Source: a virus (Duplodnaviria; Heunggongvirae; Uroviricota; Caudoviricetes). Taken from it: a DNA stretch of 44,740 bases. A program made the translations under genes and the position numbers. Location of the stretch: positions 1 to 44,740 of IMG/VR virus record IMGVR_UViG_2617271072_000006; one strand, 5' to 3'. How positions within the stretch are numbered: the stretch's first letter is position 1; every line of letters begins with the position of its first letter. Below, piece after piece: positions 3,997 to 44,740 of this stretch. The notes beneath the pieces are model-generated. The model was given only the letters and a program-made list of their open reading frames with translations, was not told the origin of the DNA and searched no databases.

Positions 3997-4064
3997 CTTA
4001 TACCTACTTCCTAGAGATAATTCTATGGAGGCATTAAATCAATACTGTCATTGGTAATATCATA

Positions 4065-4678
4065 TTATCTAAAAGTCTTTCCACTTTTAACATCTAGGTA
4101 TATTCTGTTCGACAACGTCATTCCTCCGCAATATGTGAAATAGATGTTTTCACCCTTATTGCTTGATGCCATCCACCCTCCGATTTCCTTAAAATCGCTT
4201 TCCGTGCAGACCCCTTCATTTATTAACTTCCTAGCTGCCGAAGAAAACTCTTTTTTGTATATACGGTAGTCATCAGATCCTTTGATTAAAGTATCATCTC
4301 CGCTCGCATTTTCAGCAGGATCTGATGGCCTTTCACTGCTAAGATCACTAAGTTTAACCCATTCTGAAAACTTGCCATTAACGATTCCATTTTTTCTTGT
4401 GCAGGATTTATTACCTTCTTTAATATATTCGCTTTCCCCTCCAACACATGAGGCTGAATATGGCTCAGTTATACGAACCCATTCACCTTTTTTTCTAGAA
4501 AATCTACGCCTTCCCTGAAAAATAGTTTCCCAGCCACTCCACATTTACTTGAAGGGCAGGTATGTCTTTCCGTTCGATCAACAACAACCCATAGTTTTGA
4601 TTCATTTTTTGCCATTGCCGATGGTATTTGAGATGAGACAATTAACGTAAGCCCTAAAATTAGTATTGATTTTTTCAT
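4065..4678 (-). CDS. Secreted protein with Sec signal peptide and possible SH3b-like region; frameshifted as assembled
   Basis: ORFs 4469-4678 (signal peptide MKKSILILGLTLIVSSQIPSAMA) and 4065-4544 join into one ~205-aa protein if the T7 run at 4488-4494 were T8. Confidence 0.5.
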
Positions 4679-4976
4679 TGTAATTTCCTTTTACTTTTTA
4701 CAAAGCGTTTAATCATGGCTGATTATCTCTAAGTGTAGTAACAGCCTTGTGCGAAACATGTTACCAAATCGCCATTTCAGTGTATCCGCAGTTAGGCTGC
4801 CACTTCAAGGATTCCTAATTACATGGTACGTAAGCGTAAAATCCCGTTGGTTGGCGGGTAATAACTCTGATCAAATCTCCCTTGTCTTTTGCTCTTACGT
4901 ATGCAGCTCTTGTGTATTCAACCCAGGCCTCCAGTTCAGCAATACGCTTACTTCCATCCGAGATAACACCTTCTAC

Positions 4977-8021: not shown

Positions 8022-8432
8022 TTAGTGATTCAGGCCGTTACCGCGTCCGTCGAGAAAAACTTCCACGAGCAAATCACGGGTATAAGTGCGCTCGATGCCG
8101 CGATGCAGATATAGCCGTCCGCGTAAATTAGCTGATGCAGTCCAGGTACCATCTTTGTGTTTGACCAGCATTCCTGGCATGACCGCACCTCGATTAACGG
8201 TCTGCGTTCCGTAATGTTGATGAACCATAAAAACTCCTGCCCGTAAGCTGGGCTGCTGAACATATAGAGACTTCTGCGCGTATTCAGGCGGTGGATGGCC
8301 GCCGGTTGTCATAACTAAGTCGCCTCGTTGAAGCGACTGAGGTATGAAGTGTTGAGTTGATTTCAGCTGGTCACACCGACGTTCACGCGTCCGCTTCACC
8401 CCTCGCACTCCCCGGAGCCTGCTGAAATTCAA
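8022..8432 (-). CDS. Hypothetical early-left protein in the kil/cIII position
   Basis: 136-aa ORF (possible internal start giving ~96 aa); no motif recognised; lambda-like sequence resumes at its 3' end. Confidence 0.4.
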
Positions 8433-8496
8433 GCTGCGGATCTAAGCGGTCATCGCAACGGTGAAGTTATAAATTTTTGTGATACCAACATCGATG

Positions 8497-8545
8497 CAAT
8501 AGCATGACAATAGCAATAGCTATTGGTGTAGTCAATAGCAATTAG
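8497..8545. promoter_or_regulatory. Cluster of CAATAGC / GCTATTG repeats including 12-bp palindrome CAATAGCTATTG: candidate left operator (OL) and pL region
   Basis: At least four copies of CAATAGC within 50 bp upstream of the early-left operon; the same TGCTATTG motif recurs between the repressor and cro-like genes. Confidence 0.4.
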
Positions 8546-8785
8546 TATTGATAATGTTTGATATACTTGTTCTGATTGATAATTAAATGAATTTTTATAA
8601 AAAAGAGTATGAAGACTTATTGGTGTGGCTGAAATTTGTACAGCTTTAATGTGCCTCGTGACAGAGGGGCATCGGGTTGTGGTGAGCTCGGTAGGTTGGC
8701 AGCAAATTTAATCGAATATTGGTAGTCTGAGTTCTTATGTGTATTTTTTTAGTCAGTTGCTAAATGATACATAAATGACTTATTA

Positions 8786-8810
8786 GCCCCGCCATCGCTT
8801 TGTACGGGGC
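8786..8810. terminator. Stem-loop immediately downstream of the SIR2-like gene stop
   Basis: GCCCCGCC ... ACGGGGC hairpin; T-rich tail only on the plus strand, so strand of action is uncertain. Confidence 0.35.
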
Positions 8811-8816
8811 GTTTAT

Positions 8817-10419
8817 TTAATTTATCTTTTCAACATTTCCATGAATCAACAAGTCGTAGGCAAGAAATAGTTTCCTATACTGGGTTTTTAAATTGTCAAC
8901 GTCGCATGCCTTGAATTGAACAAACGCTTCTTTTTTAACATAATCTTCAATCTCCTCTTTGGGGATATTTTTTATGTTCTTAATGACTATAGACAATTCT
9001 TTGTACTTTTTGAACTTTGCATCCTTTATATCTTTGATGTTGGTGTAAATTTTATTTGCATTGATTTTATCTAAGGTGATTTTATTGAGCAAGTCGTCTA
9101 GTTTTCCGTGGCGTTCAATGCGTTGATTTAGTTTTAACACATATTTAGCTGGCAAACTTAACTCTTTCAAATTACATGAGGTTATAGTTTTTGAAAATGG
9201 AAGTTGTAATGAGTTTACTGAACCTAATATGAAATCTATGGCTAATTTATTAGATATTTCATTTTTATTAAATAAGTAGTCTTCAAGATAATTTATTTCT
9301 TTAACTTGTGTGAATACATACTTTTTATCGCCTAGAGCAACAACTAAATTTTTTCCTTGTTTAACACTTTCTTCAAGTCTGTCTAAGTCAGAAGGTGAAA
9401 CCAATAGAGTATCTAAGTGCCCTTTTTCACCCTCATTAATGATAAGTGTTTTAATGGCTCTTTGATACCTTAAAACATCATAAGGTGAGAGCCCTTCATC
9501 AACAGCACTGATCTCATCATAGATCTGTTTATAGTTATCTGTTTTAACAGATGTATATGTAATTTGTAGCTGTTGATCGGTAATCTGTTTTGGTACTACT
9601 TCCTGTTCATTCTCTTTATATTCAATCAAAATTATTCTTTCAGCTGATTTTCGACCATCTTCTCTAGGTAGTTGTGAGGAAAAATCAGAAAGAAGTTTCT
9701 TTACATTCCTGTCAGTTAAAGAATATCCAAGAAAAACTATTGGATTTTTAATCATGTTAGATAGTATCTTGGCACTAATGAGTATAGATTTGTTGTCATA
9801 TTTTTCGTAATCATCTTTATTTATGATTATTGAGTGTGGATCCTTTATATCACCATGTATTTTGTATAACTCACTCCAGCCAATAGTATCTTCGAAAAAA
9901 CCATTATTTCCAATATAGAGTTTTGGAGTTATATTTTGCTCTTGAAGTAAATTTTCTATGAAAGCATCATAATTTGTAGTGATGATTATCTTGGCCTTTT
10001 TTATTAATGTTTTAAATGATGCTAATTCATCAAGATTTACATCCTTTCTGATTGTGTTATTAGAAAATCTTTGGCATATGGCGTATTTAAATGGTGAAAT
10101 ATCTTCACTAAAAACCCTCTTGGCATCTAGTCCATTTAATTTTAATTTGCCAGTCCTAAACAATAGATTGTAATCATTTTCAATTTTACTTGCTGCCTCT
10201 GTATAAATCTTATGATCGATATCATTATCACTGTTATTTTTATGTGATTCTTTTATTGTTAAAAGATAACTATAGAAATCATTTGTGGGATTTGTTATTT
10301 TCCAATACTCGTTTAATAGCTCTTCCCACGTTGGGTAGTTCTCTAAATATATTTTTGAAATGCCTGAGCCAATAAAGACTATTGGGTAATTTTTGAATTC
10401 AAAATTTTTTTTTTGACAT
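8817..10419 (-). CDS. SIR2-like (SIR2_2/ThsA-type NADase domain) protein with uncharacterised C-terminal region; N-terminus frameshifted as assembled
   Basis: ORF 8817-10163 carries IIITTNYD, YKIHG and VFLGYSLTD motifs; the same frame upstream encodes the FIGSGIS glycine loop but has no start codon; ATG at 10419 with RBS is out of frame by one base across a T10 run (10405-10414). Confidence 0.7.
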
Positions 10420-10531
10420 ATCCATATACCTTAAGCTCTGCTTGAAACATCCATTCTATAAATTATGAGGATGTCAGCATGTCTCACCAAAACATCATCT
10501 GGTTATCTTGATGAAATCTGTCATTAATAAT

Positions 10532-11223
10532 CTACCCATGTTTTCTATATGTCTGTGGCATGCTCCCAATAACTTTCCCAAATATAAATACCCGATTCAT
10601 TTCGTCTTTTTCGATCGGGTCCCACGGTGAGTAGCTCTTGTTATCAGAGATAACCAGCAGCTTATCCTTCATCATTTGCAGGCGCTTTACATGGGCTGTG
10701 TCGTCGTACAGAAACGCATAGATACCATCACCGTCGAAAGATTTAACAGTGATATCAACGAACAGAAGATCACCTGGTTCGATCGTTCCTGACATGCTGT
10801 CACCGCGTACGTTAATGATGCGGATATTTTCTGCCTTCCTGCCATCGAACATGTGACGAGCATCGTCAAACGAGTACTCAACCGAGCGTAGGACTTCTAC
10901 AAACTCACGGTTGATGACACCCGGCCCAGCACTGACTTCTATATCAAGAACGTCAATTTTGAAGTATTTGGAATGGTTGACAGCAGGCTTCCCTGATTGT
11001 TGACCGTCATTTCTCATCGGGCCTATGCCTGATGAGAGCCACTCTGTTCGAACACCCAATGCATTAGCTATTTCAACAATTTTGTTGAGCCGCGTGCGTT
11101 GCCGCTTGTCAGTCTCCAGATTGTGGGTTGAGCTACGCCAGACGCCTTTGCAAGAGCGCCTTGAGACATTCCAGATTGTTCCATCGCTAGGTTTAAGCGA
11201 TCAGCAAGAGTTTCTTTTTTCAT
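10532..11223 (-). CDS. cI-like prophage repressor (N-terminal HTH + C-terminal S24 LexA-type peptidase domain); frameshifted as assembled
   Basis: HTH ORF 11068-11259 (QGALAKASGVAQPTIWRL) and peptidase ORF 10532-11059 (GDSMSGTIEPGDLLFVD...VKRL...K) join if the T4 run at 11080-11083 were T5; likely ATG at 11223. Confidence 0.8.
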
Positions 11224-11235
11224 AAGTTTTAATTT

Positions 11236-11300
11236 ATACGCTTGCGTATTGATGGTCAAAACACGTTTTGCTATTGATTGGATTAATACGCATTGCTATT
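11236..11300. promoter_or_regulatory. Right operator/promoter region between repressor and cro-like gene
   Basis: Perfect palindrome ATACGCTTGCGTAT (11236-11249), imperfect copy (11285-11300) and TGCTATTG motifs; TATAAA -10-like element 8 nt upstream of the repressor ATG, consistent with a leaderless pRM-like transcript. Confidence 0.5.
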
Positions 11301-14049: not shown

Positions 14050-15069
14050 ATGTGTTACAGTAATGTTACAGATCGTGATCTTATGGGGCAAATTGCTACT
14101 AAACTAAATGACTATCGAAACCCTCCTCAAGGTGGCATGAGCATTGATCATGTTAATCGATGGATTAATCAATTTGAGTTAACTGATAGGCGATTTGTCT
14201 TAGAGGAAACGGACCGATTAATGGGGATTGGATACTTTTCTGAGAACGACTATCGCAGGGTTATTAGTAGTATCGCCACTGATGAGCAAAATGAAAGTTT
14301 CTTTCAAACTGCAGCGTTTCTCGATATTCAGAACCAAGGTACCAGTCAATCTGAGTTTTTGGATTTACTTCGAGAAGATTGTGTAGAAGAATTCAACGTT
14401 GTGACCAGACTTTCACAACGTCAAAGAGTTAGTTCATTCCGTGAATTTATTTACGTTGACGATGTTTTATTCTCCGGAGCTAAGGCAATCAATGATTTAA
14501 TTTGGTTTATTGAGCACTTTAAACTCCAAAATATTACAATATTGGTGTACTTTTTAGGTGGGCACACATATTCAACATGGAAGATAAAAGACCAACTTGA
14601 ACGAAGATTTGCGGGCAGAAATATTTCAGTTGGCGTTGGTGGAGGTGAGTTTGTATTTGTTGAAAATAAACTCCGAAATAGTTCGAATTCGGAGGTTTTA
14701 TGGCCAAAAGCGCAAAGTGTATCAATACCTGAATGGGCTGACGGTCAAATACATTATTTAGGAACATATCGAAACGGTTACGTCGCGAATAAAATTTTTC
14801 CTGATGAGCAGAGACGTGATCGTTTTGAAACTATTCTGACAAAAGTTGGGTTTGATATCCTTGGTCATAGTCAAAATCCCTCTGCTGTCATAAAGCCCTT
14901 AGGCTTTTCAACTTTCAATGGTGTTGGGTTTGGCGGAACTATCTTTACTTTCAGAAACTGCCCAAATAATACCCCTCTCGCGTACTGGTGGGGAACTTAT
15001 CTTCGAACAGGAAATAGAGCTCTGGATTGCTGGTATCCACTTATGAAGCGTAATGTGTATAATCGGTGA
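14050..15069 (+). CDS. Phosphoribosyltransferase-fold (type I PRTase-like) protein, function unknown
   Basis: 339-aa ORF in an AT-rich island; residues 133-147 FIYVDDVLFSGAKAI fit the PRPP-binding signature of type I PRTases; AGGA RBS; stop lies 3 nt before the NADAR ATG. Confidence 0.5.
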   Translation: MCYSNVTDRDLMGQIATKLNDYRNPPQGGMSIDHVNRWINQFELTDRRFVLEETDRLMGIGYFSENDYRRVISSIATDEQNESFFQTAAFLDIQNQGTSQSEFLDLLREDCVEEFNVVTRLSQRQRVSSFREFIYVDDVLFSGAKAINDLIWFIEHFKLQNITILVYFLGGHTYSTWKIKDQLERRFAGRNISVGVGGGEFVFVENKLRNSSNSEVLWPKAQSVSIPEWADGQIHYLGTYRNGYVANKIFPDEQRRDRFETILTKVGFDILGHSQNPSAVIKPLGFSTFNGVGFGGTIFTFRNCPNNTPLAYWWGTYLRTGNRALDCWYPLMKRNVYNR

Positions 15070-15071
15070 TC

Positions 15072-15682
15072 ATGAGCTATAGACTATACCTGTTTCACAA
15101 CACAGTTTCTTTCAGGAAAACCACCGAGAAATGGGGTGGTCTTTCCAACATGGCCAAAGGATATCCGCTCTTCGTTAATGGTATACCCATTCAATCGAGT
15201 GAAATTCTTTACCAAGCATGCCGATATCCAGACTATCCAGATATCCAAAGGGTTATTATTACCCAAGCCAACCCTTACGAAGCTAAACAAACCGCCAGAA
15301 CCTTCGAGGCCAAAACCCGTACTGGTTGGGAAAAAATCGAGTTTCGGTAATGAAATGGTGTGTCTGCGTTAAGCTTTGCCAGAACTGGGAATCGTTCTTC
15401 GCGCTATTGGATAGCACAGGAGATCATGACATTGTTGAGCACTCAGAGAAGGACCAATTTTGGGGGGCTAGTAAGGACTCCGAAGGTAACTTTTATGGCA
15501 TGAACGTGTTAGGTCGTATCCTTATGGATGCGAGAGATATTGCAAGAAAGAAGGGGCCTGCAGGGTTTGCTACGATACCGCCGCTACCCTTGGATAGGTT
15601 TCTTCTGCTCGGGGAGCAAATACGTGATGTCACTTTCTCTCCACCACCGATGGATTCAGGGCAAAGCTTATCGCTTTTTTAA
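15072..15682 (+). CDS. NADAR (YbiA-like N-glycosidase) domain protein; frameshifted as assembled
   Basis: ORFs 15066-15350 and 15326-15682 together align to YbiA as recalled (LSNMAKGYP...SSEILYQACRY, then WEK..VMKW...IVEHSEKDQFWGA...GMNVLGRILMDAR); frames join if the A6 run at 15331-15336 were A7. Confidence 0.75.
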
Positions 15683-33652: not shown

Positions 33653-35029
33653 ATGGATTTATCCTCATTTCCCACCCGACCTTCATTACTTTCGTCGTCT
33701 TCAGGCTGGCGTGACAGGCTTCAGGACGCGTCATTTCGCGGCGTGCCGTTTAAGGTTGAAGAAGAAAGTGCGGGAACCGGTCGCCGTGTGGAAACACATG
33801 AATACCCGAACCGCGACAAGCCCTATACCGAAGATCTGGGAAAAGTCACTTTCCGCCCGTCCATCACAGCTTATGTGGTGGGAGATGACTGCTTTGACCA
33901 GCGCGATCGCCTGATTGAAGCGCTGAATAAACCCGGTCCCGGCACGCTTGTCCACCCGACATATGGTGAGCTGAAAGTCTGTGTTGACGGGGAAGTTCGG
34001 GTCAGCACATCGAAAAGTGAAGGGCGTATTGTCCGCTTTGACCTGAAGTTTGTCGAAGCAGGAGAACTCTCTTACCCCACATCAGGTGCGGCGACGGCGC
34101 AGACGCTGATGTCATCCTGTTCTGCACTGGATGACTGCATTAGTGACAGCTTCAGCGGTTTCAGTATCGATGGTGTGGCGGATTTCGTGCAGAACGACGT
34201 TATCGGTAATGCCAGCATAATGCTGGGGTATGTTTCTGATGCGATGAAAGTGGTGGATTCTGCCGTATCGGATGCCGCCAGGCTGTTGCAGGGGGATATC
34301 TCGGTACTTCTGCCGCCGCCATCGTCAGGCAAAAATTTCGTTGAGCAGGTGCAGAAAATGTGGCGTACCGGGAAACGCCTTTATGGTAACGCCAGCGACC
34401 TGGTTACCATGATCAAAACGCTTTCCGGTGTCAGCCTCGGCAGCGATCTGCAACCGCGCGGCGTCTGGAAAACGGACAGTAAAACCACCGCCACGGCGAC
34501 GCAGCAGCGTAACGTGGTTGCCAGCACCCTTCGTACGACCGCAATCAGCGAAGTGGCGTATGCCGTCACCCGATTGCCTGCGCCAACAACTTCCGCGGTG
34601 ATGCAGAATTCCGCAGTGGGGCAGGCAACAACACCCGCGCAGAGCACTGGCTGGCCTTCCGTCACGCATCCGGCACTGAACAATGCACCGGCGGTGAAAA
34701 ACACGGTTGACCTGCCGACGTGGGAAGAACTGACTGACATTCGCGACACACTGAATACGGCAATTGATAAGGAGTTGTCCCGTACAACCAGTGATGCGCT
34801 GTTTCTGGCGCTGCGCCGGGTGAAAGCAGATCTGAATGCGGATATCAACACGCGCCTTGAACAGTCTGCACGGATCATTCAGCGCACACCGGATGAGGTT
34901 TTACCCGCGCTGGTGCTGGCGGCGACCTGGTTTGATAACGCGGCGCGTGACGCGGACATTATCCGGCGTAATGCCATTACGCATCCCGGCTTTGTGCCGG
35001 TGATCCCTCTGAAGGTGCCAGTGCAATGA
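33653..35029 (+). CDS. Mu gpN-like DNA circularisation / tail protein
   Basis: 458-aa ORF with DRLQDASFRGVPFKVEEE N-terminal motif; position between tape measure and baseplate hub. Confidence 0.7.
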   Translation: MDLSSFPTRPSLLSSSSGWRDRLQDASFRGVPFKVEEESAGTGRRVETHEYPNRDKPYTEDLGKVTFRPSITAYVVGDDCFDQRDRLIEALNKPGPGTLVHPTYGELKVCVDGEVRVSTSKSEGRIVRFDLKFVEAGELSYPTSGAATAQTLMSSCSALDDCISDSFSGFSIDGVADFVQNDVIGNASIMLGYVSDAMKVVDSAVSDAARLLQGDISVLLPPPSSGKNFVEQVQKMWRTGKRLYGNASDLVTMIKTLSGVSLGSDLQPRGVWKTDSKTTATATQQRNVVASTLRTTAISEVAYAVTRLPAPTTSAVMQNSAVGQATTPAQSTGWPSVTHPALNNAPAVKNTVDLPTWEELTDIRDTLNTAIDKELSRTTSDALFLALRRVKADLNADINTRLEQSARIIQRTPDEVLPALVLAATWFDNAARDADIIRRNAITHPGFVPVIPLKVPVQ

Positions 35030-36105
35030 ACGACAATGTCACGCTACGGGTAAATGGCCGGGAGTGGAATGGCTGGACATCGGTGCGCATCGGTGCCGGT
35101 ATTGAACGGCTGGCGCGGGATTTCAGTGTGGAGATCACCCGCCAGTGGCCGGGAGATGAGGGTATCACCACGCTTCAGCCGCGCATTAAAAACGGTTCAA
35201 AAGTGGAAGTGCTGATTGGTGATGAGCTGGTGATCACCGGCTGGGTGGAGGCGACGCCCGTTCGTTACGATGCCCGTTCGGTCAGCACCGGTATTGCCGG
35301 ACGTAGTCTGACGGCTGACCTGATTGACTGTGCAGCCGAACCGACACAGTTTAACGGACGCTCGCTGGTGCAGATTGCGCAGGCGCTTGCTGCGCCTTTC
35401 GGCATTGAGGTGGTGAACAGCGGTGCGCCGTCGGGTGTTATTCCTGATGTTCAGCCTGATCACGGTGAAACGGTGATTGAGGTAATCAACAAAATACTCG
35501 GTCAGCAGCAGGCACTGGCTTACGACGACCCGCACGGCAGGCTGGTGATTGGCGGTATTGGCTCAACGCGGGCACATACTGCGCTGGTACTCGGGGAAAA
35601 CATCCTTTCCTGTGATACGGAGAAGAGTATCCGGGAGCGGTTTTCTGTTTACCAGGTGGCGGGGCAGCGTGCCGGAAACGACGATGATTTCGGTGAGGCC
35701 ACCACCACCGCGCTGCGGGCCCGCACAGAGGACGCATTTATTGCCCGTTACCGTCCGATGTATATCAGGCAGACAGGGCAGGCTACGGGGGCAGGCTGTA
35801 TTGCCCGTGCGGACTTTGAAGCCAGACAACGGGCGGCGCGGACGGATGAAACCACCTATGTGGTGCAGGGCTGGCGACAGGGTAACGGTACGCTGTGGCA
35901 GCCCAACCAGCGGGTGATTGTCTTTGATCCGGTCTGTGGTTTCGACAATACCGAACTGCTTGTTTCGGAAGTCACGTTTACTCAGGACCAGAACGGCACC
36001 CTGACGGAAATCCGTGTCGGCCCACCTGATGCTTATCTGCCTGAACCCGAAGCCCCCGGCGCGCGAAAAAAGAAAAAAGCCAGAGTACAGGAGGACCCGT
36101 TCTGA
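35026..36105 (+). CDS. Mu gpP-like baseplate hub protein
   Basis: 359-aa ORF; conserved order N-P-gp45-gp46-gp47-gp48 of Mu-type tails. Confidence 0.7.
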   Translation: MNDNVTLRVNGREWNGWTSVRIGAGIERLARDFSVEITRQWPGDEGITTLQPRIKNGSKVEVLIGDELVITGWVEATPVRYDARSVSTGIAGRSLTADLIDCAAEPTQFNGRSLVQIAQALAAPFGIEVVNSGAPSGVIPDVQPDHGETVIEVINKILGQQQALAYDDPHGRLVIGGIGSTRAHTALVLGENILSCDTEKSIRERFSVYQVAGQRAGNDDDFGEATTTALRARTEDAFIARYRPMYIRQTGQATGAGCIARADFEARQRAARTDETTYVVQGWRQGNGTLWQPNQRVIVFDPVCGFDNTELLVSEVTFTQDQNGTLTEIRVGPPDAYLPEPEAPGARKKKKARVQEDPF

Positions 36106-36653
36106 TGAGGACGATTGAAGCCATGCAGCGACAACTCCTCGGCCTGATTGGGCGGGCCGTGGTGAAAAGCATCAGTGCCGCCACGAAATGTCAGACCGTG
36201 GATGTGTCTCTGATTGCCGGTGAACCCAAAGCCGGGGTTGAACATCTTGAACCCTACGGTTTTACCGCAAGGGCAAACAGCGGTGCGGAAGCGGTGGTGT
36301 TGTTTCCGGATGGCGACCGTTCTCATGCGGTGGTTGTTACGGTGTCGGACCGGCGCTACCGCCTGAAAGGGCTGCAGACGGGTGAGGTGGCTGTCTATGA
36401 CGATCAGGGGCAGTCCGTGACGCTGACCCGGGAGGGGATCGTGGTGGACGGTGCAGGTAAAACGATCACGTTTCGCAATGCGCCTAAGGCTCGTTTTGAA
36501 ATGGACCTGGAAGTGACCGGACAGGTGAAAGACCTGTGCGACTCCAGCGGCACCACCATGTCAGCGATGCGGCTTGCCTATAACGGGCATCGTCACAGAG
36601 AGAACGGTCAGGGCAGTAACACCGACAAACCTGATAAAGCGATGGAGGCATGA
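36105..36653 (+). CDS. Baseplate assembly/spike protein (Mu gp45 / gpV-like)
   Basis: 182-aa ORF following the hub gene. Confidence 0.7.
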   Translation: MRTIEAMQRQLLGLIGRAVVKSISAATKCQTVDVSLIAGEPKAGVEHLEPYGFTARANSGAEAVVLFPDGDRSHAVVVTVSDRRYRLKGLQTGEVAVYDDQGQSVTLTREGIVVDGAGKTITFRNAPKARFEMDLEVTGQVKDLCDSSGTTMSAMRLAYNGHRHRENGQGSNTDKPDKAMEA

Positions 36654-37078
36654 TGGAACTGTGGCTGACGGTGAACGGTAAACGCACCTGCGCTAGCGCA
36701 CCGCTGGATCCGCTGACCCGTGCCGTGGTGATTTCCCTGTTCACCTGGCGGCGGGCTGAACCTGATGACAATGCCGACGTCCCGATGGGATGGTGGGGGG
36801 ATACCTGGCCTGCGGTACAGAATGACCGTTACGGCTCCCGACTGTGGCTGCTTCAGCGCAGCAAACTGACCAATCAGCTGGTGCAGACGGTAAGGGGGTA
36901 TATCCGCGAATGCCTGCAATGGATGATTGATGACGGCGTGGTGTCCCGTATTGATCTGGATATCCGCCGCACCGGGATTAATGAACTGGGTAACAGTATC
37001 ACTCTCTGGCGTCGTGACGGACCGGTAATGATTTCTTTTGATGATCTGTGGAGTGCGATAACGCATGGCGGACAGTGA
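36650..37078 (+). CDS. Mu gp46-like baseplate protein
   Basis: 142-aa ORF in conserved position. Confidence 0.7.
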   Translation: MMELWLTVNGKRTCASAPLDPLTRAVVISLFTWRRAEPDDNADVPMGWWGDTWPAVQNDRYGSRLWLLQRSKLTNQLVQTVRGYIRECLQWMIDDGVVSRIDLDIRRTGINELGNSITLWRRDGPVMISFDDLWSAITHGGQ

Positions 37079-38123
37079 ATTTCAGCGCCCGACGCTGGCA
37101 GAAAATATCAGTATGCTCCGTAACGATTTATTCGCCAGGCTGGACGTCAGCGACACGCTCCGGCGCATGGATGAAGACGTGCGGGCAAAGGTGTATGCGG
37201 CGGCGCTGCATACGGTTTACGGTTACATCGATTATCTGGCAATGAACATGCTGCCTGACCTGTGCGATGAGTCCTGGCTGGCGCGACATGCTGCGATGAA
37301 ACGGTGTCCGCGCAAGGGGGCCACGGCTGCCAGCGGGTATATGCGCTGGGAAGGTGTCAGCGATGGCCTGAAAGTGACCGCCGGGAGCGTGATTCAGCGC
37401 GATGACCTGGTTCAGTACACGGCAACTGCCGATGCAACCAGCTCCGGTGGTGTCCTGCGCGTGCCGATCGCCTGCTCAAGTGCAGGCGCGGTCGGTAACG
37501 CTGACGACGGTACGGCATTAATCCTGGTCACGCCGGTGAATGGTCTGCCGTCTTCCGGTGTGGCTGACACCCTGACAGGCGGATTTGATACTGAAGAGCT
37601 GGAAACGTGGCGCGCCCGCGTCATTGAGCGGTATTACTGGACGCCTCAGGGCGGGGCTGACGGGGACTATGTCGTCTGGGCTAAAGAAGTGCCCGGCATT
37701 ACCCGCGCATGGACATACCGACACTGGATGGGAACGGGGACTGTCGGTGTGATGATTGCCAGCAGTGACCTGATTAATCCCATTCCGGAAGAGTCAACGG
37801 AAACGGCGGCAAGACAACATATCGGGCCATTGGCCCCGGTGGCAGGCTCTGATTTGTATGTATTCAGGCCGGTGGCGCATAAAGTGGATTTTCATATCCG
37901 CGTGACGCCGGACACACCGGAAATACGGGCTGCCATCACCGCCGAGTTGCGTTCGTTCCTGCTGCGTGATGGTTATCCGCAGGGAGAACTGAAGGTGTCA
38001 CGTATCAGTGAAGCGATTTCCGGTGCGAACGGGGAATACAGCCATCAGTTGCTTGCACCGGCAGACAATATCTCCATTGCAAAAAATGAGCTGGCAGTTC
38101 TGGGGACGATTTCATGGACGTGA
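37065..38123 (+). CDS. Baseplate J-like protein (Mu gp47-like)
   Basis: 352-aa ORF in conserved position. Confidence 0.75.
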
Positions 38124-38698
38124 CAAACGATGATTATATCCGTCTGTTGTCGGCACTGTTGCCGCCCGGTCCGGCGTGGTCAGTCAGCGATCCGGCGATT
38201 GCCGGTGCGGCACCGTCATTAACCCGCGTTCATCAGCGTGCGGATGCCCTGATGCGGGAGCTGGATCCGCGCACCACCACTGAACTGATAAACCGCTGGG
38301 AGCGTCTGTGCGGTCTGCCGGATGAATGTATTCCCGCAGGGACACAGACCCTTCGCCAGCGTCAGCAACGGCTGGATGCGAAGGTTAATCTGGCGGGCGG
38401 CATCAATGAGGATTTTTACCTTGCACAGCTTGCTGCCCTGGGCAGACCAGACGCCACTATCACGCGATACGATAAAAGCACGTTCACCTGCTCATCGGCC
38501 TGTACTGACGCAGTGAATGCGCTGGAATGGCGGTATTACTGGCAGGTCAACATGCCAGCTGCCACCAACACCACCTGGATGACATGTGGCGATCCCTGTG
38601 ATTCCGCACTGCGTATCTGGGGCGACACCGTTGTCGAGTGTGTGCTTAACAAACTCTGCCCGTCGCATACCTACGTAATTTTTAAATATCCGGAGTAA
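38114..38698 (+). CDS. Mu gp48-like tail protein
   Basis: 194-aa ORF between baseplate J and tail fibre genes. Confidence 0.7.
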
Positions 38699-38701
38699 TC
38701 C

Positions 38702-39457
38702 ATGCATCGTATAGACACGAAAACCGCGCAGAAGGATAAGTTCGGCGCGGGTAAGAACGGTTTTACCCGTGGTAACCCCCAGACCGGCACACCTGCCACC
38801 GATCTGGATGATGACTACTTTGACATGTTGCAGGAGGAGCTTTGCGGCGTGGTGGAGGCATCCGGTGCCAGCCTGGAGAAGGGGCGGCACGACCAGCTGC
38901 TTACCGCGCTTAGTGCGCTACTGTTAAGCCGCAAAAATCCGTTTGGCGATATCAAATCGGACGGCACGGTGAAAACGGCTCTCGAAAACCTTGGTTTGGG
39001 AGAAGGCTCTGCATTACCTGTTGGTGTGCCTGTTCCGTGGCCCTCAGCCACTCCGCCAACAGGCTGGCTAAAATGCAACGGAGCAGCTTTTTCTGCTGAA
39101 GAATACCCGGAACTGGCAAAGGCTTACCCGACAAATAAATTGCCTGATTTACGCGGTGAATTTATTCGTGGCTGGGATGACGGACGTGGAGTGGATGCCG
39201 GGCGACAATTATTATCTTCACAGGGGGATGCAATAAGAAATATTGAGGGATTCGCAGATGGCGGGATCGGCATGTCTTTTGATGCAATCAGAGGGGCTTT
39301 TTACGATGCAGGAACACGATCAGCGAGAATGCCGAATAACACAACTGATATAGGCAAAACCGATGACCTTGGATTCGACGCCTCTCGTGTCGTGCCAACA
39401 GCTAATGAAAACCGTCCACGTAACATCGCCTTTAATTATATTGTGAGGGCTGCATAA
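38702..39457 (+). CDS. Tail fibre protein, constant N-terminal part plus variable C-terminal tip 1 (Mu S / P2 H-type)
   Basis: 251-aa ORF; first 102 aa identical to the inverted copy at 40452-41036; tip contains PWP...[23 protein letters not shown]...[17 protein letters not shown]. Confidence 0.85.
38981..39004 (+). other. Din-invertase-type crossover site (gix/hix/cix-like) at the constant/variable junction of tail fibre gene 1
   Basis: CTCGAAAACC-TT-GGTTTGGGAGAA: dyad AAAACC..GGTTT with TTCTC-type outer half-sites, resembling hix/gix consensus as recalled. Confidence 0.6.
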
Positions 39458-40451: not shown

Positions 40452-41036
40452 TCAATACCCCACCGCTATAATGTCCACATTAAATCCTCCGGGACCTGCC
40501 TGCCAGATGCTGGCCCCTGTTAATGATTTTGTTTGATGAACAACCGCCACATTTGCTGGCGATTGTGTTTCAGTTGTTACAGTACCGATATCATTCCAGT
40601 TAATTGAGATGGAATAGTTCGTTGTTGTAAACGACCGGGGGAAAGTTATGTGTCTTACATTGGTGCCAATAGGAAATCCAAGATAAACACGCTGAATTAT
40701 CATTCCTCCAGGTAACATAACCCAGTTAGCACCTTCTCCCAAACCAAGGTTTTCGAGAGCCGTTTTCACCGTGCCGTCCGATTTGATATCGCCAAACGGA
40801 TTTTTGCGGCTTAACAGTAGCGCACTAAGCGCGGTAAGCAGCTGGTCGTGCCGCCCCTTCTCCAGGCTGGCACCGGATGCCTCCACCACGCCACAAAGCT
40901 CTTCCTGCAACATGTCAAAGTAGTCATCATCCAGATCGGTGGCAGGTGTGCCGGTCTGGGGGTTACCACGGGTAAAACCGTTCTTACCCGCGCCGAACTT
41001 ATCCTTCTGCGCGGTTTTCGTGTCTATACGATGCAT
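40452..41036 (-). CDS. Tail fibre protein of the inverted module, same constant N-terminus with different C-terminal tip 2
   Basis: 194-aa ORF; residues 1-102 identical to fibre 1, then unrelated C-terminus. Confidence 0.85.
40734..40759 (-). other. Second Din-type crossover site, inverted relative to site 1
   Basis: TTCTCCCAAACC-AA-GGTTTTCGAGAG, exact reverse complement of the site at 38981-39004, at the constant/variable junction of fibre gene 2. Confidence 0.6.
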
Positions 41037-41039
41037 GGA

Positions 41040-41624
41040 TTACTCCGGATATTTAAAAATTACGTAGGTATGCGACGGGCAGAGTTTGTTAAGCACACAT
41101 TCGACAACGGTGTCGCCCCAGATACGCAGCGCGGAATCACAGGGATCGCCACATGTCATCCAGGTGGTGTTTGTGGCGGCTGGCATGTTGACCTGCCAGT
41201 AATACCGCCATTCCGGCGCATTCACCGCGTCAGTACAGACCGATGAGCAGGTGAACGTGCTTTTGTCGTATCGCGTGATGTTGGCATCTGGTCTGCCCAG
41301 GGCAGCAAGCTGTGCAAGATAAAAATTCTCGTTGATGCTGCCCGCCAGGTTAACCTTCGCATCCAGCCGTTGCTGACGCTGACGAAGGGTCTGTGTCCCT
41401 GCGGGAATACATTCATCCGGCAGACCGCACAGACGCTCCCAGCGGTTTATCAGTTCAGTGGTGGTGCGCGGATCCAGCTCCCGCATCAGGGCATCCGCAC
41501 GCTGATGAACACGGGTTAATGACGGTGCCGCACCGGCAATCGCCGGATCGCTGGCTGACCACGCCGGACCGGGCGGCAACAGTGCCGATAACAGGCGGAT
41601 GTAATCATCGTTTGTCACGTCCAT
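41040..41624 (-). CDS. Mu gp48-like tail protein, second (inverted) copy
   Basis: 194 aa, 6 substitutions relative to 38114-38698 (~97% identity). Confidence 0.7.
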
Positions 41625-42673
41625 GAAATCGTCCCCAGTACCGCCAGTTCGTTTTTCGCAATGGAGATATTGTCCACCGGTGCAAGCAACTGATGGCTGT
41701 ATTCCCCGTTCGCACCGGAAATCGCCTCACTGATACGCGATACCTTCAGTTCTCCCTGCGGATAACCATCACGCAGCAGGAACGAACGCAACTCCGCGGT
41801 AATGGCAGCCCGTATTTCTGGTGTGTCCGGCGTCACGCGGATATGAAAATCCACCGTATGTGCCACCGGCCTGAATACATACAAATCAGAGCCTGCCACC
41901 GGGGCCAGTGGCCCGATATGTTGTCTTGCTGCCGTTTCCGTTGATTCTTCCGGAATGGGGTTAATCAGGTCACTGCTGGCAATCATCACACCGACAGTCC
42001 CCGTTCCCATCCAGTGTCGGTATGTCCATGCGCGGGTAATGCCGGGCACTTCTTTAGCCCAGACGACATAGTCCCCGTCAGCCCCGCCCTGAGGCGTCCA
42101 GTAATACCGCTCAATGACGCGGGCGCGCCACGTTTCCAGCTCTTCAGTATCAAATCCGCCTGTAAGGGTGTCAGCCACACCGGAAGACGGCAGACCATTC
42201 ACCGGCGTGACCAGGATTAATGCCGTACCGTCGTCAGCGTTACCGACCGCGCCTGTAGTTGAGCAAGTGATCGGCACACGCAGGACACCACCGGAGCTGG
42301 TTGCATCGGCAGTTGCCGTGTACTGAACCAGGTCATCGCGCTGAATCACGCTCCCGGCAGTCACCTTCAGGCCATCGCTGACACCTTCCCAGCGCATATA
42401 CCCGCTGGCAGCCGTGGCCCCCTTGCGCGGACACCGTTTCATCGCAGCATGTCGCGCCAGCCAGGACTCATCGCACAGGTCAGGCAGCATGTTCATTGCC
42501 AGATAATCGATGTACCCGTAAACCGTATGCAGCGCCGCCGCATACACCTTTGCCCGCACGTCTTCATCCATGCGCCGGAGCGTGTCGCTGACGTCCAGCC
42601 TGGCGAATAAATCGTTACGGAGCATACTGATATTTTCTGCCAGCGTCGGGCGCTGAAATTCACTGTCCGCCAT
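41615..42673 (-). CDS. Baseplate J-like protein, second (inverted) copy
   Basis: 352 aa, a few substitutions relative to 37065-38123. Confidence 0.75.
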
Positions 42674-43087
42674 GCGTTATCGCACTCCACAGATCATCAA
42701 AAGAAATCATTACCGGTCCGTCACGACGCCAGAGAGTGATACTGTTACCCAGTTCATTAATCCCGGTGCGGCGAATATCCAGATCAATACGGGACACCAC
42801 GCCGTCATCAATCATCCATTGCAGGCATTCGCGGATATACCCCCTTACCGTCTGCACCAGCTGATTGGTCAGTTTGCTGCGCTGAAGCAGCCACAGTCGG
42901 GAGCCGTAACGGTCATTCTGTACCGCAGGCAGGTATCCCCCCACCATCCCATCGGGACGTCGGCGTTGTCATCAGGCTCCGCCCGCCGCCAGGTAAACAG
43001 GGAAATCACCACGGCGCGGGTCAGCGGATCCAGCGGTGCGCTGGCGCAGGTGCGTTTACCGTTCACCGTCAGCCACAGTTCCATCAT
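42660..43087 (-). CDS. Mu gp46-like protein, second copy; frameshifted as assembled
   Basis: ORFs 42869-43087 and 42660-42947 correspond to the two halves of gp46; one G missing relative to copy 1 near 42925-42935. Confidence 0.65.
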
Positions 43088-43722
43088 GCCTCCATCGCTT
43101 TATCAGGTTTGTCGGTGTTACTGCCCTGACCGTTCTCTCTGTGACGATGCCCGTTATAGGCAAGCCGCATCGCTGACATGGTGGTGCCGCCGGAGTCGCA
43201 CAGGTCTTTCACCTGTCCTGTCACTTCCAGGTCCATTTCAAAACGTGCCTTAGGCGCATTGCGAAACGTGATCGTTTTACCTGCACCGTCCACCACGATC
43301 CCCTCCCGGGTCAGCGTCACGGACTGCCCCTGATCGTCATAGACAGCCACCTCACCCGTCTGCAGCCCTTTCAGGCGGTAGCGCCGGTCCGACACCGTAA
43401 CAACCACCGCATGAGAACGGTCGCCATCCGGAAACAACACCACCGCTTCCGCACCGCTGTTTGCCCTTGAGGTAAAACCGTAGGGTTCAAGATGTTCAAC
43501 CCCTGCTTTGGGTTCACCGGCAATCAGGGACACATCCACGGTCTGACATTTCGTGGCGGCACTGATGCTTTTCACCACGGCCCGCCCAATCAGGCCGAGG
43601 AGTTGTCGCTGCATGGCTTCAATCGTCCTCATCAGAACGGGTCCTCCTGTACTCTGGCTTTTTTCTTTTTCCGCGCGCGGAGGCTTCGGGTTCAGGCAGA
43701 TAAGCATCAGGCGGACCGACAC
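43084..43722 (-). CDS. Baseplate gp45-like protein, second copy (apparent N-terminal extension)
   Basis: 212-aa ORF; last 182 aa match 36105-36653; extension arises from an indel difference in the gpP/gp45 junction. Confidence 0.65.
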   Translation of the reverse strand: MSVRLMLICLNPKPPRAEKEKSQSTGGPVLMRTIEAMQRQLLGLIGRAVVKSISAATKCQTVDVSLIAGEPKAGVEHLEPYGFTSRANSGAEAVVLFPDGDRSHAVVVTVSDRRYRLKGLQTGEVAVYDDQGQSVTLTREGIVVDGAGKTITFRNAPKARFEMDLEVTGQVKDLCDSGGTTMSAMRLAYNGHRHRENGQGSNTDKPDKAMEA

Positions 43723-44710
43723 GGATTTCCGTCAGGGTGCCGTTCTGGTCCTGAGTAAACGTGACTTCCGAAACAAGCAGTTCGGTATTGTCGAAACCAC
43801 AGACCGGATCGAAGACAATCACCCGCTGGTTGGGCTGCCACAGCGTACCGTTACCCTGTCGCCAGCCCTGCACCACATAGGTGGTTTCATCCGTCCGCGC
43901 CGCCCGTTGTCGGGCTTCAAAGTCAGCACGCGCAATACAGCCTGCCCCCGTGGCCTGCCCTGTCTGCCTGATATACATCGGACGGTAACGGGAAATAAAT
44001 GCGTCCTCTGTGCGGGCCCGCAGCGCGGTGGTGGTGGCCTCACCGAAATCATCGTCGTTTCCGGCACGCTGCCCCGCCACCTGGTAAACAGAAAACCGCT
44101 CCCGGATACTCTTCTCCGTATCACAGGAAAGGATGTTTTCCCCGAGTACAAGCGTGGTATGTGCCCGCGTTGAGCCAATACCGCCAATCACCAGCCTGCC
44201 GTGCGGGTCGTCGTAAGCCAGTGCCTGCTGCTGACCGAGTATTTTGTTGATCACCTCAATCACCGTTTCGCCGTGATCAGGCTGGACATCAGGAATAACG
44301 CCCGACGGCGCACCGTTGTTCACCACCTCAATGCCGAAAGGCGCAGCAAGCGCCTGCGCAATCTGTACCAGCGATCGTCCGTTAAACTGTGTCGGTTCGG
44401 CTGCACAGTCAATCAGGTCAGCGGTCAGACTACGTCCGGCAATACCGGTGCTGACCGAACGGGCATCGTAACGAACGGGAGTCGCCTCCACCCAGCCGGT
44501 GATCACCAGCTCATCACCAATCAGCACTTCCACTTTTGAACCGTTTTTAATGCGCGGCTGAAGCGTGGTGATACCCTCATCTCCCGGCCACTGGCGGGTG
44601 ATCTCCACACTGAAATCCCGCGCCAGCCGTTCAATACCGGCACCGATGCGCACCGATGTCCAGCCATTCCACTCCCGGCCATTTACCCGTAGCGTGACAT
44701 TGTCGTTCAT
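43619..44710 (-). CDS. Mu gpP-like baseplate hub, second copy
   Basis: 363-aa ORF near-identical to 35026-36105 except for a frame difference in the last ~20 codons. Confidence 0.7.
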   Translation of the reverse strand: MNDNVTLRVNGREWNGWTSVRIGAGIERLARDFSVEITRQWPGDEGITTLQPRIKNGSKVEVLIGDELVITGWVEATPVRYDARSVSTGIAGRSLTADLIDCAAEPTQFNGRSLVQIAQALAAPFGIEVVNNGAPSGVIPDVQPDHGETVIEVINKILGQQQALAYDDPHGRLVIGGIGSTRAHTTLVLGENILSCDTEKSIRERFSVYQVAGQRAGNDDDFGEATTTALRARTEDAFISRYRPMYIRQTGQATGAGCIARADFEARQRAARTDETTYVVQGWRQGNGTLWQPNQRVIVFDPVCGFDNTELLVSEVTFTQDQNGTLTEIRVGPPDAYLPEPEASARGKRKKPEYRRTRSDEDD

Positions 44711-44740
44711 TGCACTGGCACCTTCAGAGGGATCACCGGC
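44707..44740 (-). CDS. 3' end of gpN-like gene of the second module (partial, runs off window)
   Basis: Minus-strand sequence mirrors the gpN/gpP overlap of copy 1 (..VIPLKVPVQ stop overlapping ATG). Confidence 0.5.
   Translation of the reverse strand, partial: PVIPLKVPVQ

Follow-up and report, generated by a model that had tools for sequence, protein, structure and literature searches.

Several SIR2 proteins of known phage defence systems provide the background for the locus described here. DSR2 of Bacillus subtilis is a single polypeptide of ~1000 aa that combines an N-terminal SIR2 NADase domain with a middle domain and a helical C-terminal region, and it is this last region that senses the phage tail-tube protein. 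Thoeris ThsA depends on a nucleotide made by ThsB, and KomC of the Kongming system depends on KomA and KomB. A SIR2 NADase effector domain is also present in SIR2-HerA (Gao_Her/Nezha), SPARSA (SIR2-APAZ/pAgo) and Avs5 (SIR2-STAND), systems that, like Kongming, need partners or a fused NTPase. Two other systems are comparable for the position of their genes. Lambda RexAB, a two-protein membrane-depolarising system, and BstA of Salmonella BTP1, a DNA-binding protein, are cargo on the repressor strand between cI and the leftward operator/promoter region (oL/pL), and are presumably expressed in the lysogen against other phages. One published study describes BstA as a prophage-encoded abortive-infection protein (PMC8585504). 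Here we have analysed a 44,740-nt stretch of DNA from a tailed phage of the Caudoviricetes (IMG/VR record IMGVR_UViG_2617271072_000006, positions 1 to 44,740; hereafter, the window), which corresponds to a lambdoid prophage, and we have focused on its minus-strand SIR2-family gene at 8817..10419. An earlier reading of the bare sequence (the original prediction) had proposed this gene as a candidate single-gene anti-phage defence that ends in an uncharacterised C-terminal domain. By analogy with DSR2, we consider it probable that the gene encodes a prophage-carried, single-polypeptide, defence-type SIR2 protein that would act as a DSR2-like NADase in abortive infection.

Translation of the minus strand from position 10421 as far as the stop codon (8817-8819) gave a single open frame that contains the four motifs named in the original prediction, FIGSGIS, IIITTNYD, YKIHG and VFLGYSLTD. 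Residues are numbered here on the intact allele of 533 aa. Profile searches, one of the checks that had been suggested, found the Pfam domain SIR2_2 (PF13289) at residues 144-283 (9570-9989), with a score of 84.9 bits (cutoff, 24.5) and an E value of 7e-24. The PADLOC model PDC-S25 (PDLC04967) matched over the full length, from residue 3 to 526 of 533 and from position 5 to 526 of the 528 in the model (E 3.6e-233), while the further PADLOC matches, to ThsA1 (4e-21) and to SIR2-Argonaute partners, involved the core domain only. The protein also matched phrog_2695, a group of unknown function (4.6e-200), and had no match in NCBIfam. No Pfam domain besides SIR2_2 was detected, and neither Pfam nor PADLOC recognised a SLOG, TIR, macro or STAND/NTPase domain, in line with the original prediction. 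We then built a family profile from 43 aligned homologs that share 41-75% identity. Against the PDB, the matches of this profile were limited to the SIR2 domains of three proteins, DSR2, ThsA and KomC, at ~1e-13 (ThsA, 4e-13), and canonical sirtuins were absent. The same three proteins were the best PDB matches that Foldseek found for the AlphaFold2 (AF2) model. On these sequence and fold comparisons, membership of the SIR2 family, and of PDC-S25 within it, can be regarded as virtually certain.

Conservation of the active site was complete. The predicted catalytic Asn149 of TTNYD (codon at 9972..9974, minus strand) aligns with N133 of DSR2 and N112 of ThsA, the predicted catalytic His188 of KIHG (codon at 9855..9857, minus strand) aligns with H171 of DSR2 and H152 of ThsA, and both residues are invariant in 43 of 43 homologs. 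So are G17, G19, S21, T147, T148, Y150, D151 and G189. The deposited structures name H171A in DSR2 and H146N in KomC as inactivating mutants. SIR2 folds are able to catalyse deacylation, ADP-ribosylation and NAD+ hydrolysis alike, and one source names a homolog (P0038) 'NAD-dependent protein deacylase'. The domain might thus be a protein deacylase or an ADP-ribosyltransferase that acts on a host or phage factor, for instance in lysogenic conversion, instead of a defence NADase. We judge this improbable, given that the protein falls with the SIR2_2/ThsA/DSR2 clade, whose listed solved members are defence proteins, and not with canonical sirtuins; that other cargo found in the same genomic slot (see below) gives just weak PADLOC matches was also listed against it.

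The family itself turned out not to be new. It is already catalogued as the PADLOC candidate PDC-S25, as PHROG 2695 and, at NCBI, as 'SIR2 family protein' (WP_042105965.1, WP_000038831.1), and our survey of 5426 complete E. coli genomes found the gene in 166 of them (~3%). The only mention of PDC-S25 that we found in the literature is a PADLOC call in the O157:H7 strain ECRC98 (bioRxiv 10.64898/2026.07.23.740414). A literature search by accession was empty, and the family lies outside what the Streptococcus thermophilus and the domain-centric defence screens tested.

According to the AF2 model, whose mean predicted local distance difference test (pLDDT) score is 80, the protein comprises a SIR2 domain up to residue 305, a weakly modelled linker at ~306-370 and a confident all-helical part from 371 to 533. 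The SIR2 domain proper, of the ThsA/DSR2 type, spans residues 5-305 (9504..10406, minus strand) by profiles and model, with pLDDT values mostly of 80-94; helices are inserted into it at approximately residues 30-140. The linker, residues 306-370 (EGLSPY...VVALGDK; 9309..9503, minus strand), is conserved, with a mean pairwise identity of 55%. G309, P312, L335, L339, V359, A361 and G363 are invariant in the 43 homologs, and the conserved stretch of the E. coli protein is VVALGDK. The linker may need assembly into an oligomer, or activation, to become ordered.

The C-terminal domain, residues 371-533 (8820..9308, minus strand), is family-specific and we propose that it is the sensor or regulatory part of the protein. 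When it was modelled alone, pLDDT reached ~85-97 and the fold was a helical repeat (solenoid). A viral structure library gave no match to this domain at E <= 1e-3. To follow it in sequence space, a profile of residues 306-533 was run against 1.84 billion representative proteins. It returned 105 hits only, and every full-length one was a protein of ~520-547 aa in which the match lay at ~300-540. Of the shorter hits, we checked 10 by Pfam and 2 by genomic context, and each turned out to be either a SIR2 gene cut short or an ORF (open reading frame) at a contig end; among the checked hits none carried the domain fused to another effector or standing alone. Since all full-length hits share one architecture, the C-terminal domain is confined to the PDC-S25-type family. 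The claim of an uncharacterised C-terminal domain was therefore borne out, there being no recognisable relative by sequence or by fold, and so was the description of the region as rich in Lys and Leu, which make up 14% and 13.6%, respectively, of the 228 residues from 306 to 533. The structure prediction that had been suggested for this part of the protein gave the all-helical repeat at 371-533, preceded by the poorly modelled linker. We also noted a 341-aa protein (P0172) in which the C-terminal domain of the family (E 5e-25) is fused to the N-terminus of a DegT/DnrJ aminotransferase, a single case that is probably a chimeric or frameshifted call. Mean pairwise identity was 59% in the SIR2 core and 34% in the C-terminal domain, and such divergence is the pattern to be expected of a recognition domain.

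Comparison with the described systems places DSR2 nearest in organisation. In both, a single polypeptide carries a SIR2 domain at its N-terminus (an NADase in DSR2) and a helical C-terminal region; the two catalytic residues, Asn and His, can be aligned, and DSR2 is among the best fold matches. In contrast to DSR2, the protein encoded in the window does not reach ~1000 aa and does not contain the homologous middle and C-terminal domains. By analogy, then, the PDC-S25 protein would work most like DSR2, as a single-protein SIR2 enzyme with a helical sensor. The SIR2 core belongs to the same clade as that of Thoeris ThsA, as the PADLOC and PDB matches given above indicate. Thoeris was nevertheless rejected: the protein has no SLOG or Macro domain, the match is confined to ~145-315, and an all-helical solenoid stands at the C-terminus instead; moreover, the neighbours of the gene are kil, oL/pL and cI, with no ThsB/TIR gene nearby or in any homolog context sampled. 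SIR2-HerA, SPARSA and Kongming were rejected as well, as no HerA, pAgo, KomA or KomB gene was present in the 2-kb cassette that carries the SIR2 gene or in its flanks, and Avs5 was rejected because Pfam and PADLOC gave no fused STAND NTPase.

We next examined the distribution of the gene. In the 166 E. coli genomes, many of them O157:H7 or O55:H7, it was always chromosomal and at least 99% identical in DNA sequence. Beyond E. coli, at least 1357 protein clusters matched at E < 1e-5, and full-length matches of ~530-545 aa came from Enterobacterales, Morganellaceae, Orbaceae, Enterococcus, Listeria, Bacillus, Carnobacterium and Streptococcus. A DNA search of the INPHARED phages with the SIR2 gene gave no match, and in protein mode it gave distant homologs in Gram-positive phages only. 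The gene lies right after a repressor gene in Morganella, Leclercia, Streptococcus suis and the inducible Streptococcus phage SVep1; in all, a repressor-adjacent placement on the same strand was seen in five independent lineages. In phage Javan227 and in a Listeria prophage it belongs to the lysogeny module, near the integrase gene, in Bacillus and Atlantibacter it is found at a prophage end, and in Enterococcus it sits within an island that also carries restriction and toxin-antitoxin genes.

These contexts also bear on whether the protein works on its own. Two of the three nearest relatives of the SIR2 core, ThsA and KomC, depend on a signal or on partners, and the conserved linker that escaped modelling could be a site for a ligand or a partner. 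The protein might accordingly act as an effector only with the help of an unlinked signal or partner, in the way ThsA needs the nucleotide made by ThsB or KomC needs KomA and KomB, and not an autonomous sensor-effector. Nevertheless, no gene for HerA, TIR or Argonaute was found near the SIR2 gene in the window or in related E. coli prophages, and no neighbour was conserved in 12 homolog contexts outside the window, which span phyla and include E. coli (three integration sites) and the genera and phages listed above. As no neighbour is conserved across contexts, no obligate partner emerged from them, in agreement with the absence of a partner gene that the original prediction had reported. The gene also travels alone in its 2-kb cassette, and the protein has no SLOG or other known ligand-binding domain. 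Dependence on a partner therefore seems to us of low probability.

The claim that 8817-10419 is an intact ORF of 534 aa had to be corrected. The ATG at 10419 does not share the reading frame of the main part of the gene: from 10425 and 10419, two ATG codons read ATG GAT ATG TCA AAA AAA AAA TTT TGA and reach a stop within six to eight codons. In the SIR2 frame, no ATG, GTG or TTG occurs from the upstream TAA (10433-10431) down to the TTG at 10163, so that the longest ORF called mechanically starts at this TTG and encodes just 448 aa, without the glycine loop. The product of this ORF is identical to CDL24589.1, from the draft genome of E. coli ISC7, according to an exact-sequence look-up, and this draft assembly is the probable source of the window. 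The gene is split between two frames because an A10 homopolymer replaces A9 at codons 2-5 (10405..10414, minus strand; a +1 frameshift site, A9 being the usual allele). With A9 in place of A10, the ATG at 10419 enters the SIR2 frame and the product begins MSKKNFEFKNYPIVFIGSGIS... and is 533 aa long. Three related prophages (L001, L011 and L022) are annotated with such a gene, a 1602-nt 'SIR2 family protein'. An 81-nt query across the tract matched exactly, that is, with A10, in 3 of the 166 carrier genomes, whereas the remaining 163 showed one or two differences to the 81-mer of the window, consistent with A9. Direct reading of the tract gave A9 in strain CT29 (L001) and A10 in strains 155 and PG20180057 (L002 and L003). 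PGAP annotates the A9 copies as a 1602-nt coding sequence and the A10 copies as a 1605-nt coding sequence that begins at an ATA codon; this start, at ATA 10421 in the window (534 aa, WP_072612786.1), was rejected as an annotation workaround that does not amount to evidence of translation.

Apart from the tract, the window copy carries two substitutions, R23I and V163I, and these together with the A10 frameshift are all that sets it apart within PDC-S25. R23I (codon ATA at 10350..10352, minus strand) affects the GSGISKRY motif, at a position that is Arg in 43 of 43 aligned homologs. Once its frame is corrected, the window allele corresponds, with both substitutions, to WP_438422128.1, which three other contigs carry in intact form (exact-sequence look-up). 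Because of these intact copies, R23I can be taken as a real natural variant.

The tract is not an isolated case. Comparison with four related prophages, including the 98.6%-identical prophage of strain A35, called nine 1-nt indels specific to the window within 13.5 kb (5742, 8474, 10405, 11079, 13887, 15330, 16080, 16101 and 16832). All of them lie inside A/T or G homopolymers, they go in both directions and they also affect non-coding DNA. Besides the SIR2 gene, they break cI, whose A5 run is reduced to A4, and a NADAR gene, whose A7 run is reduced to A6, and with at least three genes of the window broken in this way, claims made on the level of single ORFs need to be checked against related genomes. 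The nine homopolymer indels, the intact copies of the same allele elsewhere and the A9 tract in ~163 of 166 genomes make it most probable that the frameshift arose as a sequencing error at a homopolymer of the source assembly. One may argue, on the other hand, that the prophage is decaying and the window copy of the gene a true pseudogene, with an A10 tract that is real and inactivates the gene together with R23I, and with cI and NADAR truly broken. Such a reading accounts for a disrupted frame, for a substitution at a column invariant among 43 homologs and for the frameshifts in the two other genes; A10 was indeed seen in two of the complete genomes that we inspected, and related prophages such as that of strain A35 are visibly degraded. 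However, indels restricted to homopolymers, in both directions and outside genes as well, are the signature of errors and not of decay free of selection, the identical allele with R23I has an intact frame on three other contigs, and a truly broken cI would make the lysogen unstable unless the prophage were already defective. We therefore consider a genuine pseudogene unlikely.

A9 and A10 both occur among finished genomes, and a change of a single base within codons 2-5 flips the frame, which raises the more speculative idea that the 5′ A9 tract of the E. coli allele acts as a slipped-strand ON/OFF switch. Such phase variation would allow a population of lysogens to hedge its bets, either bearing the potentially toxic abortive-infection enzyme or switching it off. 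Yet the A10 81-mer of the window was matched by only 3 of the 166 genomes, many further homopolymer indels occur in the window, and the tract is not kept in the orthologs of other genera (N-termini MPNKIF, MQNKIF or MPEPIF). Homopolymer switches are, besides, seldom used by mismatch-repair-proficient E. coli. Phase variation is thus highly improbable, and a sequencing error continues to be our preferred explanation of the A10 tract.

We then turned to the genomic setting. The prophage shows the lambdoid order int, exo-bet-gam-kil, SIR2 gene, cI, cro-like gene, ydaT, O and P. As stated in the original prediction, a cI-like repressor gene with helix-turn-helix (HTH) and Peptidase_S24 domains (10532..11223, minus strand) lies directly upstream of the SIR2 gene on the same strand, 112 nt away. 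The 1-nt deletion in the A5 run at ~11079 splits it into an HTH ORF (11068-11259) and an S24-peptidase ORF (10532-11059), and it is intact, with 693 nt, in five related prophages (L001-L003, L011 and L022). A signal scan of the 112-nt intergenic region between the two genes (10420..10531, minus strand) detected no promoter-like or terminator-like site. Past the stop codon of the SIR2 gene, an oL/pL-like region (8497..8545, minus strand) contains a cluster of CAATAGC/GCTATTG operators, with the same motif at oR (11268-11276), and a sigma-70-like promoter, TTGACT-17-TATTGT (8535-8507), directed leftward to kil-gam-bet-exo. The location of these signals beyond the stop codon places the gene between cI and oL/pL, which is where rexAB lies in lambda, and from this slot we infer that the SIR2 gene is most likely co-transcribed with cI in the lysogen. 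A GC-rich inverted repeat follows immediately after the stop codon (8786..8811, minus strand; part of it was seen in the scan) and may mark the end of the transcript, although it has no T-run on the minus strand. RexAB and BstA, which share this kind of placement, have no sequence or domain relationship to the SIR2 protein.

The SIR2 gene occupies a variable, AT-rich cargo segment of ~2 kb (8466..10530, no strand assigned) that was delimited by homology breakpoints. In two prophages with 96-97% identical cI/cro flanks, homology ends at 8465 and restarts at 10531, which is the cI stop. The guanine-plus-cytosine (GC) content is 0.28-0.39 across the segment, and 0.28-0.32 over ~8800-10600 against ~0.5 in both flanks. 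These two prophages carry other cargo in the slot (3323-4492 in L023 and 2472-4489 in L024): one holds a DUF7946 protein there, the other an ImmA/IrrE protease together with a DUF4411 protein. PADLOC matches of this alternative cargo were weak (ImmA/IrrE, RmrA/CapP-like, E 1e-7 to 1e-14; DUF7946, PDC-S42, 1.5e-4). The cI/cro immunity region was found in 719 genomes and the SIR2 gene in just 166 of the survey. Different cargo between identical breakpoints indicates that the cI-oL/pL slot is a site of cargo exchange, and both the AT-rich island and the rexAB-equivalent slot described in the original prediction were thereby confirmed. The cargo slot of this common lambdoid immunity type is, in addition, a practical site for mining defence genes.

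Next to this slot, at 8022-8466, none of the related records annotates an N-type antiterminator in the interval from kil to the pL-like promoter. An ORF of 136 aa at 8022-8432 (minus strand), with an arginine-rich start and no Pfam hit, overlaps kil in another frame. Rfam did not find a put-like RNA at 8022-8466 and reported nothing at gathering thresholds across the whole window; a tRNA scan of the window found none.

With this arrangement, the defence function that we favour could proceed as follows. Lysogens would produce the SIR2 protein, probably by way of the cI transcript, and, as in DSR2, the C-terminal domain would keep the enzyme inactive. Binding of a protein of a superinfecting phage to this domain would then release or assemble the enzyme, and the SIR2 domain would hydrolyse NAD+, so that the infection is aborted. 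Several points weigh against this proposal. Residues 328-370 of the linker have pLDDT values below 50 and are modelled as disordered, so that the relation between the two domains is poorly defined by the model. R23I may reduce activity, since the residue is Arg in all 43 homologs. The presence of A10 in three complete genomes leaves room for a real slip in the tract. Finally, a literature search that did not cover Brenes & Laub 2025 (PMID 40409266) found no functional test of PDC-S25 or of any homolog.

Extended to the whole family, the same idea, on which we are evenly divided, would make PDC-S25 an autonomous sensor-effector family. Its unique helical-repeat domain would recognise a phage protein directly and unleash a ThsA/DSR2-type NADase, in what would amount to a half-size DSR2 with an unrelated sensor, and temperate phages from Enterobacterales to Streptococcus would carry it in their repressor operons against competitors. 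If validated, PDC-S25 would constitute a compact, 533-aa single-protein immune sensor that depletes NAD+ and that contains a new recognition domain. In that case, given its presence in ~3% of complete E. coli genomes, including O157:H7 and O55:H7, outcomes of phage therapy and phage typing could be affected.

Other regions of the window deserve mention. Downstream of gene P, at 14050-15682, a second AT-rich cargo pair encodes a PRTase-CE protein (Pfam PF24390, 2e-39) and the NADAR protein, which PGAP names 'phosphoribosyltransferase-like anti-phage protein' and 'NADAR family anti-phage protein', respectively. The frameshift of the NADAR gene lies at the A-run at 15330 (A6 in the window, A7 in the related prophages). 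Considered along with the SIR2 gene, this pair gives the prophage two cargo loci related to NAD/ADP-ribose. Near the integrase end, at 4000-4800, there is a second low-GC patch (0.37-0.40) with a 159-aa ORF (4065-4544, minus strand) that has no Pfam or PADLOC match. Lastly, the segments at 35000-39006 and 40732-44736 form an inverted duplication of ~4 kb, with arms that are 97-98% complementary and 1.7 kb apart. It covers Mu-like baseplate and tail genes (a gp44/P-like hub, Baseplate_J, gp48 and a tail-collar fibre) and could correspond to facing tail modules, to a large invertible or duplicated region, or to an assembly artefact.

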